A stretch of 64,000 nt of DNA. Source: Escherichia phage 308Ecol101PP. Within the stretch, counting starts at the first letter, position 1, and every line of letters begins with the position of its first letter. Below are positions 27,471-33,647 of the stretch, piece after piece. Location: the sequence record OR062945.1, one strand, 5' to 3'. The translations under genes were made by a program, and so were the position numbers. The notes under the pieces are model-generated. The model was given only the letters and a program-made list of their open reading frames with translations, did not search any database and was not told where the DNA came from.

Positions 27471-28913
27471 GTGGTAGAAATTATTTTGTCTCATCTAGTA
27501 TATGACCAGGCTTATTTTTCTAAGGTCTGGCCTTATATGGATTCTGAGTATTTTGAGCGTGGACCGGCAAAAAATGTCTTTAAAATTATAAAGAGCCACG
27601 TTAACGAATATAATGCAATGCCATCTATCAATGCGTTAAAGGTGGCTTTAGATAACAGTTCTTTAACTGAAGCCGAATATAAAGGAACTTCAGACCTAAT
27701 TGAAAAATTGGCTGATACTCCTGAAGACCATGAATGGTTGGTTAAAGAAACTGAGAAATATGTCCAGCAAAAAGCGATGTATAATGCTACGTCCAAAATC
27801 ATTGAGATTCAGTCTAATGCTGAATTACCTCCAGAACAACGTAACAAGAAAATGCCTGATGTAGGAGCTATTCCTGATATTATGCGTCAAGCACTTTCAA
27901 TTTCGTTTGATAGTTATGTTGGGCATGACTGGATGGAAGACTATGAAGCACGCTGGCTTTCTTATCTAAACAAAGCACGTAAGGTCCCGTTCAAATTAAA
28001 CATTCTGAATAAAATCACTAAAGGTGGTGCTGAAACCGGTACACTGAATGTTTTAATGGCTGGTGTTAACGTTGGTAAATCTTTAGGCCTTTGTTCACTT
28101 GCTGCAGATTATCTTCAAACAGGTCATAACGTTCTTTATATTTCTATGGAAATGGCTGAAGAAGTTTGCGCTAAGCGTATAGATGCAAACATGCTTGACG
28201 TATCACTTGATGATATTGATGATGGTAACGTATCTTATGCTGAATATAAAGCCAAGATGGAAAAATGGCGTTCAAAATCCACATTAGGACGTTTAGTAGT
28301 TAAACAGTATCCTACTGGCGGAGCTAATGCTAATACATTCCGTGCATTGCTTAATGAATTGAAACTCAAGAAGAACTTTGTGCCATCTGTAATCATGGTT
28401 GATTACTTAGGTATTTGTGGGTCTTGTCGTATCAGAGTTTACACTGAAAATAGTTACACATTAGTTAAAGCTATCGCAGAAGAACTTCGTGCATTAGCAG
28501 TAGAATCTGAAACAGTTCTATGGACTGCAGCTCAAGTAGGACGTGCAGCATGGGATGCTTCGGATATGAACATGAGCGATATTGCAGAATCAGCAGGTTT
28601 ACCAGCAACGGCAGATTTCATGTTGGCCGTAATTGAAACCGAAGAACTTGCACAAGCCGAACAACAACTTATCAAACAAATCAAATCACGATACGGCGAT
28701 AAGAATAAGTGGAATAAATTCCTGATGGGTGTACGTAAAGGCAACCAGAAATGGATTGAGATTGAGCAAGAAGGCATGAACACATCTAACACAGTAAATG
28801 AAAACGCAGGTGCTCAGATGCGTCAGGCAGAGGTGAATCGTACGGAACGCGTAGGTAAAGCCAAAGCAACACGTGCTGACCTAGATAGCTTAGCCAATGA
28901 GTTAAAATTTTAA
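27471..28913 (+). CDS. 41: replicative DNA helicase gp41 (DnaB-like)
   Basis: 480 aa, GTG start with AGGAG upstream, Walker A GVNVGKS; matches T4 gp41 from memory. Confidence 0.9.
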   Translation: MVEIILSHLVYDQAYFSKVWPYMDSEYFERGPAKNVFKIIKSHVNEYNAMPSINALKVALDNSSLTEAEYKGTSDLIEKLADTPEDHEWLVKETEKYVQQKAMYNATSKIIEIQSNAELPPEQRNKKMPDVGAIPDIMRQALSISFDSYVGHDWMEDYEARWLSYLNKARKVPFKLNILNKITKGGAETGTLNVLMAGVNVGKSLGLCSLAADYLQTGHNVLYISMEMAEEVCAKRIDANMLDVSLDDIDDGNVSYAEYKAKMEKWRSKSTLGRLVVKQYPTGGANANTFRALLNELKLKKNFVPSVIMVDYLGICGSCRIRVYTENSYTLVKAIAEELRALAVESETVLWTAAQVGRAAWDASDMNMSDIAESAGLPATADFMLAVIETEELAQAEQQLIKQIKSRYGDKNKWNKFLMGVRKGNQKWIEIEQEGMNTSNTVNENAGAQMRQAEVNRTERVGKAKATRADLDSLANELKF

Positions 28914-28919
28914 TAAAAA

Positions 28920-28938
28920 GGAGACTTCGGTCTCCTTT
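28920..28938 (+). terminator. hairpin with UUCG tetraloop after gene 41
   Basis: GGAGAC-TTCG-GTCTCC followed by TTTCGGGG. Confidence 0.45.
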
Positions 28939-28942
28939 CGGG

Positions 28943-28972
28943 GTTTACATCTTCCTCTAGGCATGATACGAT
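28943..28972 (+). promoter_or_regulatory. candidate early promoter (GTTTAC ... TACGAT)
   Basis: 18-nt spacing. Confidence 0.4.
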
Positions 28973-29001
28973 GTACTTACACCAACCAAGAGGAAAACAT
29001 T

Positions 29002-29376
29002 ATGAATATGTCTCAAGCAATTTTTACTGCAATCACCGAAAACACAACTGTTGAAGTAGTTTCTCCACTGGCAACCTACGTTATTCTTGCTCCTAAAACT
29101 ATTGTATCTCGTATGGAAAACATGGGCAAACGTATCGTACAAATTGTTGGAGCCGGAAATCAAAAACTTGATTATCTGCGAACCATCAAAGCTTATGAAC
29201 ATTTCCAACTCGAAAAAGGTTCTCCTATCCAGGTAGAACTCGTAAATGGTGATATCGTTCGAGCAATGTTCCATCATTTCTATGCATTGAATGACCCATC
29301 TAAAGCAGTTCGTTTAATTGCATACGACGCAAACCAAACCGAAATCAACGCAGATGTATCTAAATTACGTTTTTAA
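29002..29376 (+). CDS. hypothetical protein
   Basis: Track ORF 28963..29376 starts in the promoter; ATG 29002 has AGAGGAAAA upstream. Confidence 0.45.
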   Translation: MNMSQAIFTAITENTTVEVVSPLATYVILAPKTIVSRMENMGKRIVQIVGAGNQKLDYLRTIKAYEHFQLEKGSPIQVELVNGDIVRAMFHHFYALNDPSKAVRLIAYDANQTEINADVSKLRF

Positions 29377-29405
29377 GTTTACTTCTCCAGTAGTTGTGTT
29401 ATTAT
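29377..29405 (+). promoter_or_regulatory. early promoter (GTTTAC, 17 nt, TATTAT) inside a 12-bp inverted repeat
   Basis: Arms CTCCAGTAGTTG (29385-29396) and CAACTACTGGAG (29414-29425); the downstream arm contains the Shine-Dalgarno sequence of the next gene. Confidence 0.5.
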
Positions 29406-29431
29406 AGACCTATCAACTACTGGAGAACAAA

Positions 29432-29749
29432 ATGAAAACCATCGATTGTAAAGCAGAATTTAAGATTTTTTATCACGGTTCAAGTAGTTCAGCTAACATC
29501 GAAAACATGCTTTGTCCTCCTGAGGAAACAGGAGTTCTGTCTGAAACCGGACGTAAGAAAAACTTGGATCGTGTATTCTTTACTGAAGATATCGGTTTAG
29601 CAAAGATTTATGCAGGACGAGCAGCACGCTCTTATGGAGGTGAACCACGTCTCTATCGAGTAATTTCTCCGGTAGACGTAGTTCAAATGAATGATACTAA
29701 AGGTGCTACAGTTTATCACGCTGAATGGGCATTTTGTGAGGAAATATGA
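29432..29749 (+). CDS. hypothetical protein
   Basis: 105-aa ORF. Confidence 0.45.
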   Translation: MKTIDCKAEFKIFYHGSSSSANIENMLCPPEETGVLSETGRKKNLDRVFFTEDIGLAKIYAGRAARSYGGEPRLYRVISPVDVVQMNDTKGATVYHAEWAFCEEI

Positions 29750-29937
29750 GCAAATTAACTAAAGTTACTTTTATAGGTTGGTTTAAAAGCGGTGAGATGT
29801 TCACTAAAGATATCATGTTATCAGGTGATCGCGAAGAAATCGAGTGGGTTACGGTACAACTTGCTGAAGTGAACAACGCATTAGTTAAAGCATTTGTTAA
29901 TGACGAGAAAGTTTTTGAAGCTGATTTCAGAGGATAA
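29746..29937 (+). CDS. dmd: Dmd-like antitoxin (inhibitor of host RnlA/LsoA RNase toxins)
   Basis: 63 aa with pattern FIGWFKSGEMFTK...LAEVNNALVKAF, which resembles T4 Dmd as I remember it; sits between 41 and 61. Confidence 0.65.
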   Translation: MSKLTKVTFIGWFKSGEMFTKDIMLSGDREEIEWVTVQLAEVNNALVKAFVNDEKVFEADFRG

Positions 29938-29938
29938 T

Positions 29939-30151
29939 ATGTATTCAACTGTGTTTAAACCATCAACATACGAATTTGCATCAACTACACAATGGAAAGC
30001 TCTTATTCTGGAAGGATGGGAACTAATGATGGACTGTGAAGCATCTGAAAAGTTTCCGCACGGCAAAGTGGACTTCGTTAAATTTGCTGTACGTCCGACT
30101 AAACGACAGATTCGTCAAGAAAAACGCAAATTTCGCAAAAGTTTAAAATAA
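29939..30151 (+). CDS. small protein with C-terminal RPTKRQIRQEKRKFRK tail
   Basis: Track ORF 29894..30151; ATG 29939 follows the dmd stop; third member of the RPTKRQ-tail family. Confidence 0.4.
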   Translation: MYSTVFKPSTYEFASTTQWKALILEGWELMMDCEASEKFPHGKVDFVKFAVRPTKRQIRQEKRKFRKSLK

Positions 30152-30153
30152 CT

Positions 30154-30183
30154 GTTTACAAGCACCACATACTGTGTTACTAT
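30154..30183 (+). promoter_or_regulatory. candidate early promoter (GTTTAC ... TACTAT)
   Basis: 18-nt spacing. Confidence 0.4.
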
Positions 30184-30211
30184 CTTTTTATCAACTACAG
30201 AGGAAATTAAA

Positions 30212-30580
30212 ATGAAAAAATTAATCGCTTTAGCAATGGTATTTGGATTAACCGGATGTGGTGCCCATGGCTTTATCCCTAATAACGTTGGCCAATTGAT
30301 TTACAATCCGAATGTTAAACAATATGAACAACCTAAAGTTGAAGTGGAAGACCCGGTTACTGTAGGTAATCGAATGATTCAAGCTGATGCCCATGCTCAA
30401 CGTTATCGTGACTCTGATACTGTAGCTGTGTCAAAGGAACAGCGCGTTAAAGAACATTGCTTACAGGCTACTGAAATCGCATTCATTCGCTATGTTGAAA
30501 CAACCGGTAAAGAGCCTACCCAGAAACAAATCGCGAATAACTACGTCCAGTGTATTGAACGTTTAAACAAATTTAATTAA
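30212..30580 (+). CDS. putative lipoprotein
   Basis: Signal peptide with lipobox LTGC (MKKLIALAMVFGLTGC). Confidence 0.55.
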   Translation: MKKLIALAMVFGLTGCGAHGFIPNNVGQLIYNPNVKQYEQPKVEVEDPVTVGNRMIQADAHAQRYRDSDTVAVSKEQRVKEHCLQATEIAFIRYVETTGKEPTQKQIANNYVQCIERLNKFN

Positions 30581-30641
30581 TTGGTTTACGCCAAAGTTAA
30601 AACAAGATGCTATAAACATAACAAATCAAGAGGAAATTAAC

Positions 30642-30890
30642 ATGGAATTATTCGTGGCTAGTTCAGTAGCAGTTTTAATCGCAGGTATTGGTTCAATCAT
30701 CATTTACATGTTGCCTTGGGTAATCGCACTTATTCGTGGCACAAAAAGCACAACAGCAATCTTCTTTGTATCTTTACTCTTTAACTGGACGATGATTGGT
30801 TGGATTGGAACTTTAATTTGGTCTATTGTTGCCGAAAAGAAATCTGCTCAGCAGCCTCAACAAGTAATTATTATTCGCGAAAAAGAATAA
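30642..30890 (+). CDS. hypothetical inner-membrane protein
   Basis: 82 aa with two hydrophobic helices. Confidence 0.5.
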   Translation: MELFVASSVAVLIAGIGSIIIYMLPWVIALIRGTKSTTAIFFVSLLFNWTMIGWIGTLIWSIVAEKKSAQQPQQVIIIREKE

Positions 30891-30894
30891 ACTT

Positions 30895-30924
30895 GTTTAC
30901 ATTATAGATGGACTATAGTATAGT
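30895..30924 (+). promoter_or_regulatory. candidate early promoter (GTTTAC ... TATAGT) with palindromic -10 region
   Basis: 18-nt spacing; GGACTATAGTATAGTAGTCC. Confidence 0.4.
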
Positions 30925-30953
30925 AGTCCTATCAAATCAACTAAGGAGTTAAA

Positions 30954-31247
30954 ATGAAAAAGTTATCATTGGCAGCAATCTTACTCGCAGTATCATGTGC
31001 ACCAGCTCCAGTTACGGCAGGTTATGATAAAGACCTCTGTGAGTGGTCAATGACTGCAAATCAAGAAGATGTTGAACAACAAATCTTCTCTGATATCATG
31101 AACATCACTAAACGAGACCGTCCTAATATGGTTAATAAAGTTGTTGAACAACTTAAGTCCGGTGGTATCATGCAGTACAATTATGTTTTGTATTGTGACC
31201 CTAATTTCGATAACAAAGATATCGTAACCGAAATCACAGGTGAATAA
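30954..31247 (+). CDS. sp: Spackle-like periplasmic protein (superinfection exclusion)
   Basis: 97 aa with signal peptide MKKLSLAAILLAVSCAPAP; T4 Sp is also 97 aa and encoded near dmd and 61. Confidence 0.6.
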   Translation: MKKLSLAAILLAVSCAPAPVTAGYDKDLCEWSMTANQEDVEQQIFSDIMNITKRDRPNMVNKVVEQLKSGGIMQYNYVLYCDPNFDNKDIVTEITGE

Positions 31248-31248
31248 T

Positions 31249-31899
31249 ATGATTTATTACATGCACAAAAACGCGCCATTTAAATATGGTAAATTTCCTA
31301 ATGCACAATGTTATAATATAACGCCGAATGAAAATAATAACGGTTATCATATTGGTGTAATTTTTGTAATTGTTAAAGATAACGAAATCGTTGCCTGGGC
31401 TGATTTTAAAGGTACAACGTATGATGTTAATCCGGTGCCTTTCACATATTACAATATAATGGATTTGGCATATGATTATAATTGGTTTAATCATGACGCG
31501 TTGGCTCATATTGAAGGTGTAGGATTTGACATCTCTTATTCTAGCTATTCATTATGTCCTATGAGCCGAGCTCACGGTAAAGATGCATCATATCTTTCAT
31601 TTCGGAAACGTGTAAACTTCAAACGTAGTACAGAGTATGTCGGTGGACTCTTTGTTAAAGATAATAAAATAACCCGTATTAGTTATCCTTTAAGTGTAGG
31701 TCAAAAAGATGTTGATGTTGATTTAGACTTAACTGAAAATAACATTAATCATATTGCTTCTGTATATTTTGATATCGATGAAAAAATTGTAGTGTGTGGA
31801 TACGAATTACCACCTGAAGAAAAGGCTGAAGCAATTGAAGTCGAATTAGAAATTTCTGTTGATGACCAAATATTTAATGCATTTATGAATCGAGGTTAA
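31249..31899 (+). CDS. hypothetical protein
   Basis: 216 aa; noticeably AT-rich codon usage. Confidence 0.45.
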   Translation: MIYYMHKNAPFKYGKFPNAQCYNITPNENNNGYHIGVIFVIVKDNEIVAWADFKGTTYDVNPVPFTYYNIMDLAYDYNWFNHDALAHIEGVGFDISYSSYSLCPMSRAHGKDASYLSFRKRVNFKRSTEYVGGLFVKDNKITRISYPLSVGQKDVDVDLDLTENNINHIASVYFDIDEKIVVCGYELPPEEKAEAIEVELEISVDDQIFNAFMNRG

Positions 31900-32117: not shown

Positions 32118-32585
32118 ATGGGTATTATTAACACTGCAATAGATTCTGTTTACGCATATAAGTTTATTCGACTAATGCAAAAACCTTTTACCGAATGGAA
32201 AGCATACGAAGCCAAAATCATCGATGAACGTGGAAGTGTTCTTAAACGTCCTTCTACTCCCGAAGAGAAAGCGGCGTATACACCTTTTCATGCTTCAGTT
32301 CGTTCAATGAAGCGAATGATGAGCACTGTTCCAGGTCTTAATGGAATGGCCTCAATGATGTCTGCCTGGAGTGCTGTAGCTTCACGCTATAACATTACGG
32401 AAGAACAGCAGAAAGAAATATTTAAAGAACTCCCTTTATTTGAGGATATGGTTGCTGGTGATTCAGGTGGCAGCCCTCAAGCTATTGCATCAGGAACAAC
32501 TACAGGTGCAGTCGTAAATAAAGGTCCAGAACAAATTCCTTCCAAGAAAAGAAAGCGAATTAAAGTAAATATTAATAAGTTGTGA
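32118..32585 (+). CDS. hypothetical protein
   Basis: Track ORF 32091..32585; ATG 32118 has AGGAGGTACCT upstream. Confidence 0.45.
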   Translation: MGIINTAIDSVYAYKFIRLMQKPFTEWKAYEAKIIDERGSVLKRPSTPEEKAAYTPFHASVRSMKRMMSTVPGLNGMASMMSAWSAVASRYNITEEQQKEIFKELPLFEDMVAGDSGGSPQAIASGTTTGAVVNKGPEQIPSKKRKRIKVNINKL

Positions 32586-32624: not shown

Positions 32625-33647
32625 ATGGCTGAATGGATAGATAATGAATTTGCTTATCGTGCGTTTTCTCACCTACCTCGTTTTAGACAAATCAATAATT
32701 CAAGCACATTTAAATTAACATTTCGTTGTCCAGTTTGTGGCGACTCCCAGACAGATGCAATGAAAGCTCGTGGATGGTATTATGGCGGTACTCCTGGTAA
32801 TGTACATTGCTATAATTGTCAATACCACAATACAATTTCCGGATACTTAAAAGAATATGACGAAGAGCTTTATCGCGAATATCTAATGGAAGTTCGTAAA
32901 GAAAAAGCTAGAATGGAACCAAAGATTGAAAAGGTTCCTGAAGCTAAGCCGGAGCCAGAGAAAAAGACTATAAATTCTTTACCGTCTTGTTCTCGTCTGG
33001 ACAAGCTGCCTGAAGAGCATCCTATTGTGAAATATGTTAAGTCTCGATGCATTCCTAAAGAATCATGGAACAGATTATGGTTCACATTAGAATGGCCTAA
33101 ATTGGTCAACAAGATTCAACCTGGTACGTATAAGAAAGAGATTCCCGAACCACGTTTAGTGATTCCTATTTTTAATAAAGATGGGAAGGCCGAGTCATTC
33201 CAAGGGCGTGCACTTCGTAAAGATGCTCCTCAGAAATATATCACTATTAAAGCGTTTGAGTCTGCAACAAAAATTTATGGTGTTGAACGTGTTAAGGAAG
33301 GAGACGTCTGGGTAATGGAAGGCCCTATTGATAGTTTATTCATACCCAATGCAATCGCTATTACAGGCGGCTCAATAGATTTAGATGTGGTACCATTTAA
33401 AGAACGTCGGGTATGGGTAATGGATAATGAACCTAGGCATCCGGATACTATAGCTCGCATGAAGCGATTAGTTGATGCAGGCGAACGTGTCATGTTCTGG
33501 GACCGAGCTCCATGGAGATCAAAGGATGTGAATGATATGGTAATGAAAGAAAATGCAACACCACAAGAAATTTTAGAATATATGAAACAGAATATTTCAA
33601 GTGGGTTGCATGCTAAAATGAGATTATCTCGTTATTCGAAGATTTAA
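32625..33647 (+). CDS. 61: DNA primase gp61
   Basis: 340 aa, N-terminal zinc ribbon CPVCGDS...CYNC, TOPRIM core; matches T4 gp61 from memory. Confidence 0.9.
   Translation: MAEWIDNEFAYRAFSHLPRFRQINNSSTFKLTFRCPVCGDSQTDAMKARGWYYGGTPGNVHCYNCQYHNTISGYLKEYDEELYREYLMEVRKEKARMEPKIEKVPEAKPEPEKKTINSLPSCSRLDKLPEEHPIVKYVKSRCIPKESWNRLWFTLEWPKLVNKIQPGTYKKEIPEPRLVIPIFNKDGKAESFQGRALRKDAPQKYITIKAFESATKIYGVERVKEGDVWVMEGPIDSLFIPNAIAITGGSIDLDVVPFKERRVWVMDNEPRHPDTIARMKRLVDAGERVMFWDRAPWRSKDVNDMVMKENATPQEILEYMKQNISSGLHAKMRLSRYSKI

Follow-up and report, generated by a model that had tools for sequence, protein, structure and literature searches.

The five genes that occupy positions 29746-31247 of the 64-kb window (the whole stretch of DNA that was analysed) correspond, judged by their sequences, to dmd, tifA, imm.1, imm and sp of phage RB69, a well-annotated set of two anti-toxin genes and superinfection-exclusion genes. 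The region is very probably the RB69-type (Mosigvirus) form of the variable early-gene block that T-even phages carry between their helicase gene (41) and primase gene (61). DNA comparison identifies the source as an RB69-like Mosigvirus, ~98% identical to RB69 across the full stretch, and ~150 further Mosigvirus genomes are also 98% identical over its whole length. In agreement with the initial placement of the block between helicase and primase, gp41 lies upstream (27471-28913) and gp61 downstream (32625-33647), as in the RB69 annotation. The preliminary description had listed five ORFs and read them as an anti-defence region combining anti-toxin with envelope-targeted exclusion functions; all five were found at these coordinates on the + strand (as is every gene and promoter located below), and this general reading is right and agrees with published work (PMC9391042). 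The cluster is also conserved in related phages, being kept in 154 phage records. Each ORF scores above the cut-off of its curated Pfam family, and likewise in PHROG, while an NCBIfam search with the proteins returned no useful match for any of them and an Rfam search only a sub-threshold chance match. The matching ORFs in the RB69 record are named dmd, 61.4, imm.1, imm and sp, and the five proteins are 98–100% identical to their RB69 counterparts and 33–67% identical to those of T4. Four of the five ORFs already carry names and mechanisms; Imm.1 is the exception. No observation counts against the identity of any of the five genes.

The first gene of the block, dmd (gene 61.5; 63 aa, 29746..29937), encodes the Dmd-like antitoxin recognised at the outset, as supported by a match to PF17587 (75.6 bits against a cut-off of 27, 4e-21) and by near-identity to the solved RB69 Dmd 5i8j, from which it differs by one residue (V51 here, I in RB69). 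It also matches 5hy3, the T4 Dmd bound to RnlA, at 8e-18 and is 56% identical to T4 Dmd. From these likenesses, Dmd is predicted to act as antitoxin to the RNases RnlA/LsoA, which it would bind and neutralise, a function shown for its homologues. The next gene, tifA (gene 61.4; 70 aa, 29939..30151), matches DUF7279 (PF23945, 72.1 bits against 24.5, 3.5e-20); it starts 1 nt past the dmd stop, and a Shine-Dalgarno sequence is present. Its product had been labelled an "RPTKRQ-tail protein", and RPTKRQ is indeed present at residues 52-57, with a P53-T54 cap ahead of a basic helix at the C-terminus (RPTKRQIRQEKRKFRKSLK), but the label is out of date: this is TifA, already characterised as an inhibitor of ToxN. 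Its sequence matches that of RB69 TifA at 100% identity, and experiments have shown the RB69 protein to inhibit ToxN and to bind RNA (PMC9391042, PMC10853763); identity to T4 TifA is 57%. Being identical to the protein tested elsewhere, TifA here probably has both activities and would bind ToxN and RNA, neutralising the ToxIN abortive-infection system as shown for homologues. The published P53-T54 numbering (PMC10853763) fits the 70-aa ORF. A longer, 85-aa version with a TTG start (29894-30151) was rejected on the strength of this numbering, the Shine-Dalgarno sequence of the 70-aa ATG ORF and the RB69 annotation.

Upstream, the block is adjoined by a homologue of ORF040c (105 aa, 29432..29749) with an ADP-ribosyltransferase fold, whose stop codon overlaps the dmd start (ATGA). 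Gene spacing indicates that dmd and tifA are co-transcribed with ORF040c, which heads the operon. No sequence link between ORF040c and Arr came out of a profile search of PDB sequences; their kinship is visible at the level of the fold only. As a second possibility, the analogy with the anti-CRISPR AcrF11 suggests that this widely conserved protein may itself be a counter-defence enzyme.

The downstream end of the block is formed by sp (gene 61.3; 97 aa, 30954..31247), which was correctly described as encoding a secreted Spackle-like protein: it matches T4_Spackle (PF25676, 145 bits against 27, 1.1e-42) as well as PDB entries 6x6o (1.4e-39, residues 1-97) and 7cn6 (1e-39), is 66% identical to T4 Sp and carries a signal peptide (residues 1-22, cleavage VTA|GYDKD) that leaves a mature protein starting at G23 with the conserved cysteines C29 and C81. 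The mature start at G23, the C29-C81 disulfide and the mechanism of gp5 tail lysozyme inhibition have been reported for Spackle (PMC7677548). The protein encoded here is thus predicted to be Spackle, the periplasmic inhibitor of the gp5 tail lysozyme; it would be exported, cleaved after residue 22 and inhibit the lysozyme domain of the gp5 tail spike of an incoming phage. The next gene of the island 3' of sp is adfA (gene 61.2, anti-DarT factor A; 31249..31899; PF23813, 4.5e-121), with H164 in place of the R164 of RB69; its mechanism and the meaning of the residue-164 allele have been described (PMC11257639). The dmd-tifA-adfA set was named the "anti-TA island" in 2022 (Srikant et al., PMC9391042), and the same features are found here, with dmd and tifA in one operon and adfA nearby, between genes 41 and 61.

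The transcription signals divide the region into several units. The window has 18 copies of the motif GTTTAC-N16-18-TANNNT where 2.84 would be expected, far more than chance would give; 17 of the 18 are on the + strand and four lie within 28943-30924. From early promoters of this type, host sigma-70 RNA polymerase would transcribe the region straight after infection. A promoter scan and a motif search both identified a T4-type early promoter ahead of ORF040c (TTTACT-16-TATTAT, 29378..29405), which probably drives the ORF040c-dmd-tifA unit, one ahead of imm.1 (TTTACA-17-TACTAT, 30155..30183), which is similar to the one that precedes imm.1 in T4 (CTGTTTACAAG...TACTAT...TATCAACTAC), and one ahead of sp (TTTACA-17-TATAGT, 30896..30924). 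The sequence 5' of imm (GTTTACG, a 20-nt spacer and TATAAA; 30585..30616) is promoter-like but non-canonical, and was left uncalled by the promoter scan. Among the five genes, only imm.1 and sp have a canonical early promoter of their own, and the earlier claim that promoter-like sequences precede each gene is not confirmed: imm has only the non-canonical one, and dmd and tifA have none, given their spacing (the overlap with the upstream ORF and the 1-nt gap). The region would then comprise three or four units, namely ORF040c-dmd-tifA, imm.1, sp-adfA and imm, the last being transcribed by read-through from imm.1 or from a weak promoter of its own. The first promoter lies within a stem-loop (29383-29427) built on a 19-nt inverted repeat (RNA fold dG -22.1 kcal/mol, z -4.73), the region upstream of sp forms a short hairpin that overlaps the promoter (fold z -2.76), and those upstream of imm.1 and imm contain the promoter motif but no stable stem in the RNA fold. 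PeSL (promoter-early stem-loop) elements, described in variable regions, combine an early promoter TTTACW-N17-TAYWAT with a stem-loop (PMC4122927); the architecture upstream of ORF040c matches them, and that upstream of sp fits moderately.

Why these genes lie side by side is a separate matter. We lean slightly towards the reading that the "island" is no functional unit and that its genes have become neighbours by recombination accident in a hyperplastic 41-61 region, where PeSLs allow harmless insertions and deletions. T4 and most other T-even genera keep dmd-tifA-sp-adfA here and have imm.1-imm elsewhere or not at all, only 154 Mosigvirus records have the six-gene arrangement, and tifA is cleanly deleted in related contigs and has been lost by some Mosigviruses. 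The promoter/leader cassettes between the genes, moreover, are related to one another (direct repeats D1 and D3; likeness to T4 promoters), one of them folds into a strong PeSL-like hairpin, and shuffling by way of PeSLs has been documented in T4-type phages (PMC2839356, PMC4122927). On the other hand, every gene has an early-expressed host-interaction function, and the trio dmd, tifA and adfA is kept together in different genera, which suggests a selective advantage to co-location or co-regulation. What the position of imm.1-imm in T4 and the loss of tifA in some Mosigviruses do establish is that the cluster is not a fixed unit. Promoter-bearing cassettes would recombine readily in such a plastic region, so that anti-toxin and exclusion genes could end up together, and no coupled mechanism need be assumed between the two sets. 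This reading concerns the meaning of the clustering only and is compatible with the gene functions assigned to the RB69-type block.

Hydrophobicity analysis, a form of the signal peptide and topology check proposed in the preliminary description, gives the lipobox of Imm.1, two hydrophobic segments in Imm and the signal peptide of Sp. The lipoprotein and the membrane protein between tifA and sp had both been left with no assigned function, which stands for the former, Imm.1, but not for the latter, which is Imm. The gene imm (82 aa, 30642..30890) encodes an inner-membrane superinfection immunity protein that matches Imm_superinfect (PF14373, 57.2 bits against 27.9, 1.5e-15) and phrog_1039 (1e-30) and is 65% identical to T4 Imm; the two hydrophobic segments (residues 1-34 and 38-64) agree with its earlier description as a two-helix protein. 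By these matches it is assigned as Imm, the classical superinfection immunity protein, which in the inner membrane would stop the DNA entry of later-arriving T-even phages, as shown for homologues.

The gene preceding it, imm.1 (30212..30580), encodes a predicted lipoprotein of 122 aa that matches DUF5481 (PF17578, 38.4 bits against 27, 1.7e-9) and phrog_1754 (1.8e-28) and is 33% identical to T4 Imm.1 (E 6e-20). Its N-terminus (MKKLIALAMVFGLTGC) has an h-region at residues 3-18 and the LTGC lipobox noticed at the outset, with Cys16 and a Gly at +2; this fits the pattern of an SPase II substrate, [LVI][ASTVI][GAS]C preceded by an n-region with positive charge and a hydrophobic h-region. As there is no Asp at +2, Imm.1 is probably sorted to the outer membrane. 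The lipobox is kept in four of five lineages (LTGC here, LAGC in T4, LVGC in P0005 and TTGC in P0004, the last retaining the cysteine without fitting the strict pattern), and the homologue in P0002 has LAGF and lacks the cysteine. Imm.1 is also predicted to have a helical C-terminal domain with invariant C83 and C114. Relatives are few: a word-indexed search found three proteins, an exhaustive HMMER search of 1.8 billion representatives seven, and viral contigs yielded seven loci, all of Mosigvirus or Tequatrovirus types. With so narrow a family no deep alignment is possible, and an AF2 model from five sequences (pLDDT 66) is confident only for a helical hairpin at residues 75-120. Comparison of this model with the PDB in Foldseek gave nothing below E = 2.5, a sequence search of the PDB gave no match, and a literature search on DUF5481 or T4 imm.1 found no paper.

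At each of 11 additional loci that were examined, imm follows imm.1 at a distance of 10-65 nt, and the pair occurs in three contexts: between gp43 and gp42, between tifA and sp, and after a Phage_FRD3 gene. Because imm.1 is directly upstream of imm in all three, the two genes appear to move as one cassette. This, the conservation of the lipobox, the assignment of canonical early promoters to imm.1 and sp only, and the co-transcription of dmd and tifA with ORF040c are the additions of the present analysis. The phage groups with Imm.1 are exactly those in which Imm shares 60% identity or more with the Imm encoded here (154 and 502 records with Imm.1; 153 and 502 with Imm), and ~380 further phage records contain an Imm relative with no detectable Imm.1.

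Since imm.1 and imm travel together between genome positions, we propose, tentatively and at less than even odds, that Imm.1 is an overlooked third component of T-even exclusion, an outer-membrane-anchored periplasmic lipoprotein that works with inner-membrane Imm. It would be exported and lipidated at Cys16, and in the periplasm it would assist Imm in superinfection exclusion; it might, for example, contact the incoming tail tip or position Imm at entry sites. If true, such cooperation would explain the movement of both genes as one cassette through T-even genomes. Several observations count against the proposal. The missing cysteine in P0002 implies that not every member of the family is lipid-anchored, many phages with an Imm relative have no detectable Imm.1, and the model is confident over the C-terminal hairpin only and has no informative fold match. 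In addition, plasmid-borne Imm alone reportedly excludes T4 (Lu and Henning, 1989), in which case Imm.1 would not be required for exclusion.

The same features can be read differently. Small phage-encoded superinfection-exclusion lipoproteins that are made early and act on the envelope include Llp of T5 and Cor of phi80/N15. It is conceivable, though we consider it unlikely, that Imm.1 is independent of Imm and is an outer-membrane, envelope-modifying lipoprotein of this kind, which would block the phage's own receptor or another envelope component and halt the adsorption of further phages or the loss of progeny on cell debris. By the +2 rule of E. coli, a lipobox that lacks Asp at this position predicts sorting to the outer membrane, the protein is small with two invariant cysteines, frequent in small periplasmic proteins, and between T4 and RB69 Imm.1 diverges much faster (33% identity) than do Imm and Sp (65% and 66%), which would fit adaptation to a variable partner such as a receptor. 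This is offset by the lack of sequence or fold similarity between Imm.1 and any solved protein, by the lineage that lacks the lipid-anchor cysteine and by the strict adjacency to imm in every context, which points to a link with Imm and not to independent action; we know of no receptor-blocking activity of Imm.1. It is very improbable that Imm.1 is instead a lysis-timing or lysis-inhibition accessory acting in the periplasm with Spackle: Spackle mutants affect lysis inhibition (PMC7677548), imm.1-imm adjoin sp in this phage and Imm.1 is predicted to face the periplasm, but imm.1 lies away from sp and the lysis genes in T4 and other phages, and the family searches gave no similarity to RI, RIII or spanins.

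For the most part, then, the block re-discovers annotated, largely characterised RB69-like genes and adds little. Imm.1, in contrast, is small, easily testable and, in ~650 sequenced T-even phages, always coupled to imm; if it takes part in exclusion, this would round off the account of how T-even phages shut competitors out at the cell envelope. The H164 allele of AdfA, and the fact that some relatives have lost tifA, also predict the sensitivity of this phage to the DarTG1 and ToxIN defences, which matters for the choice of phages in therapy.

Among known systems, Llp and Cor are related to Imm.1 by functional analogy, with no sequence or fold similarity detected. The anti-TA island of T4 has the same plan as here: an early promoter precedes a dmd-tifA operon, sp and adfA follow, and the whole lies between genes 41 and 61. 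T4 differs in having neither ORF041c nor ORF040c upstream of dmd, in a TifA with a 15-residue C-terminal extension that is missing here, and in lacking imm.1-imm between tifA and sp. T4 imm.1-imm has both genes arranged as here, an Imm.1 with a lipobox and a similar upstream promoter, but is placed between genes 43 and 42, and the two genes are separated by 11 nt in T4 against 61 nt here, with a GTTTAC motif in between. The closest likeness is to RB69 (AY303349, 18.6-20.2 kb) and other Mosigvirus genomes, which have the genes in this order, at these lengths and with these intergenic promoters, and with few substitutions relative to RB69, for example in Dmd and AdfA.

The stretch at 29746-31247 carries five closely spaced open reading frames (ORFs), all on the plus strand, and every one scores above the gathering threshold of a curated protein family: Dmd (29746-29937, 63 aa; PF17587, 75.6 bits), TifA (29939-30151, 70 aa; DUF7279, PF23945, 72.1 bits), Imm.1 (30212-30580, 122 aa; DUF5481, PF17578, 38.4 bits), Imm (30642-30890, 82 aa; Imm_superinfect, PF14373, 57.2 bits) and Spackle, the product of sp (30954-31247, 97 aa; T4_Spackle, PF25676, 145 bits). 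The gene after sp encodes the anti-DarT factor A, AdfA (31249-31899, plus strand; PF23813, 4.5e-121). The PHROGs calls for the five (in order Dmd, unknown, unknown, 'immunity to superinfection' and 'spackle periplasmic') agree with Pfam. The 1.9 kb around the cluster shows 98% DNA identity to RB69 and about 150 other Mosigvirus genomes, and the RB69 record, which places exactly these ORFs between gene 41 (helicase) and gene 61 (primase), names them dmd, 61.4, imm.1, imm and sp; 61.2 (adfA) comes next. The proteins are 98-100% identical to their RB69 counterparts, whereas identity to T4 is 56% for Dmd, 57% for TifA, 33% for Imm.1, 65% for Imm, 66% for Spackle and 67% for AdfA. The five-gene cluster of the preliminary description is therefore real, with all five ORFs and their family matches in place, and its broad reading as an anti-defence region matches the published 'anti-TA island', a term covering dmd, tifA and adfA together (PMC9391042). 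The genes so described are known and already named.

Dmd, the classical phage antitoxin against RnlA and LsoA (cited in PMC9391042), is here one residue off the solved RB69 protein (PDB 5i8j) and is related to the T4 Dmd of the RnlA complex (5hy3). The small protein with the RPTKRQ tail is TifA (formerly 61.4), with 100% identity to RB69 TifA, the most potent of the T4, T2, T6 and RB69 proteins that inhibit the ToxN toxin; tifA and dmd are co-operonic (Srikant et al. 2022, PMC9391042). RB69 TifA binds RNA via a basic C-terminal helix with a P53-T54 cap (Guegler et al. 2023, PMC10853763), and the 70-aa ORF has this pair exactly at positions 53-54, in ...AVRPTKRQIRQEKRKFRKSLK. The two-helix membrane protein, wrongly taken to have no assigned function, is identified by family matches and the RB69 annotation as Imm, the T-even superinfection immunity protein, and has two hydrophobic segments. 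Spackle matches over its full length the solved T4 protein (6x6o, 7cn6), an allosteric inhibitor that binds the lysozyme domain of the gp5 tail spike (PMC7677548); the signal peptide, G23 as the mature start and the C29/C81 cysteine pair are all retained here. Its signal peptide (30954-31019, plus strand) also holds a cysteine in a lipobox-like setting (AVSC here, LASC in T4). The accepted cleavage site, after residue 22, lies downstream of this motif, which is presumably unused, since the published mature protein begins at G23 (PMC7677548).

Imm.1 starts with a textbook lipoprotein signal (MKKLIALAMVFGLTGC; h-region 3-18, lipobox, Cys16). The lipobox position reads LAGC in T4 and LVGC in one distant homologue (P0005); another (P0004) retains the cysteine in a motif, TTGC, that departs from the strict lipobox pattern, and a third (P0002) has LAGF and then AHA|S, an ordinary signal peptide. 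Together, these signals suggest that the predicted periplasmic location is conserved and the predicted lipid anchoring nearly so. In E. coli, the presence or absence of Asp at +2 bears on the membrane to which a lipoprotein is sorted; no Imm.1 member has Asp there, so the protein is predicted by this rule to be anchored in the outer membrane. The alignment conserves YNPxxKxY, YRxS and two cysteines, C83 and C114, both borne by a helical hairpin (residues 75-120) that is the confident part of an otherwise weak AlphaFold model (pLDDT 66). Searches of the PDB by fold and by sequence found no relative of Imm.1, and a literature search turned up no publication about it. With 7 representatives among 1.8 billion proteins, the family is very small; it is confined to T-even phages and occurs in 656 phage records, 154 of Mosigvirus type and about 502 of Tequatrovirus type. 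The RefSeq records NC_000866 (T4), NC_054931 (T2) and NC_018855 (HX01) label Imm.1 'iduronate sulfatase', which looks like a propagated mis-annotation, as no family match backs that name for this 122-125-aa protein.

What is new here is the behaviour of imm.1 and imm as a mobile pair. In 11 of the 11 further loci examined, imm lies 10-65 nt 3' of imm.1, and the pair occupies three settings: it lies between genes 43 and 42 in T4 and in the viral contig loci L004 and L005, between tifA and sp in Mosigvirus, and behind a Phage_FRD3 gene in contig locus L007. Within the same identity bands the record counts are mirrored (154 and 502 for Imm.1, 153 and 502 for Imm), and the imm.1 promoter resembles that of T4. 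This strict adjacency, the three settings, the mirrored counts and the T4-like promoter lead us to suggest, tentatively, that Imm.1 might act with Imm in the envelope. Against such coupling, about 380 phage records contain an Imm relative without detectable Imm.1. Plasmid-borne Imm alone was reportedly enough for exclusion in the work of Lu and Henning in 1989.

In the window, 18 copies of the T4-type early motif GTTTAC-N16-18-TANNNT are present where 2.84 would be expected, 17 of them on the plus strand; four, at 28943, 29377, 30154 and 30895, lie upstream of ORF041c and ORF040c (two ORFs preceding dmd), imm.1 and sp, respectively. Because the dmd start overlaps the ORF040c stop (ATGA) and tifA begins 1 nt past dmd, both genes rely on the promoter at 29378-29405. 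Upstream of imm, GTTTACG and TATAAA are separated by a 20-nt spacer, an arrangement that the promoter scan did not call, and read-through that starts at the imm.1 promoter may transcribe imm, as in T4, whose imm.1 and imm are separated by 11 nt. The promoter-like sequence previously ascribed to each gene thus holds for imm.1 and sp but not for dmd and tifA, which share that of ORF040c, while imm has just the uncalled elements. Directly past the gene 41 stop and ahead of the next early promoter, a GC-rich hairpin (28917-28940, plus strand; GGAGAC-TTCG-GTCTCC, then TTTC) looks like a terminator; the scan did not call it, probably owing to the short T run.

AdfA carries His at RB69 position 164, which is Arg in RB69 and Bas47. 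The R164H change reportedly enables RB69 AdfA to bind DarT1 and neutralise it, H164 being the neutralising allele (PMC11257639), so this phage is predicted to be DarTG1-resistant. Further downstream, a single 155-aa ORF (32118-32585, plus strand), the same in Bas47, stands where the RB69 reference record has two coding sequences (RB69ORF032c and 61.1). The RB69 translation agrees over the first 51 residues only, which suggests that this record either differs by a frameshift or contains a sequencing error; the C-terminal third of the ORF matches T4 gp61.1.

As to why anti-toxin and exclusion genes lie together, we saw no evidence for a mechanism common to both. We think instead that they are co-located through a permissive, recombination-prone early region, a reading based on four observations. 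The six-gene arrangement occurs only in the 154 Mosigvirus records, whereas dmd-tifA-sp-adfA occupies the gene 41-61 locus in Tequatrovirus, Dhakavirus and other genera. Two closely related viral contigs (L008 720-793 and L009 2926-3000, against window 29938-30151) have a clean ~206-bp deletion that removes tifA and brings dmd directly to the imm.1 promoter; in GenBank, O157 typing phage 6 and LF82-3 align in two pieces with a corresponding coverage of 92%. The sequences between the genes are promoter/leader cassettes related to one another. Finally, a 19-nt inverted repeat surrounds the -10 box of an early promoter (29378-29432, plus strand; dG -22.1 kcal/mol, z -4.7) and pairs the spacer CTTCTCCAG with the ORF040c Shine-Dalgarno region; such a strong stem-loop would mask the ribosome-binding site on read-through transcripts and leave it free on those begun at its own promoter. 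This stem-loop around promoter and ribosome-binding site resembles the design of the PeSL (promoter-early stem-loop) elements, proposed to mediate modular shuffling in T4-type phages (PMC2839356, PMC4122927).
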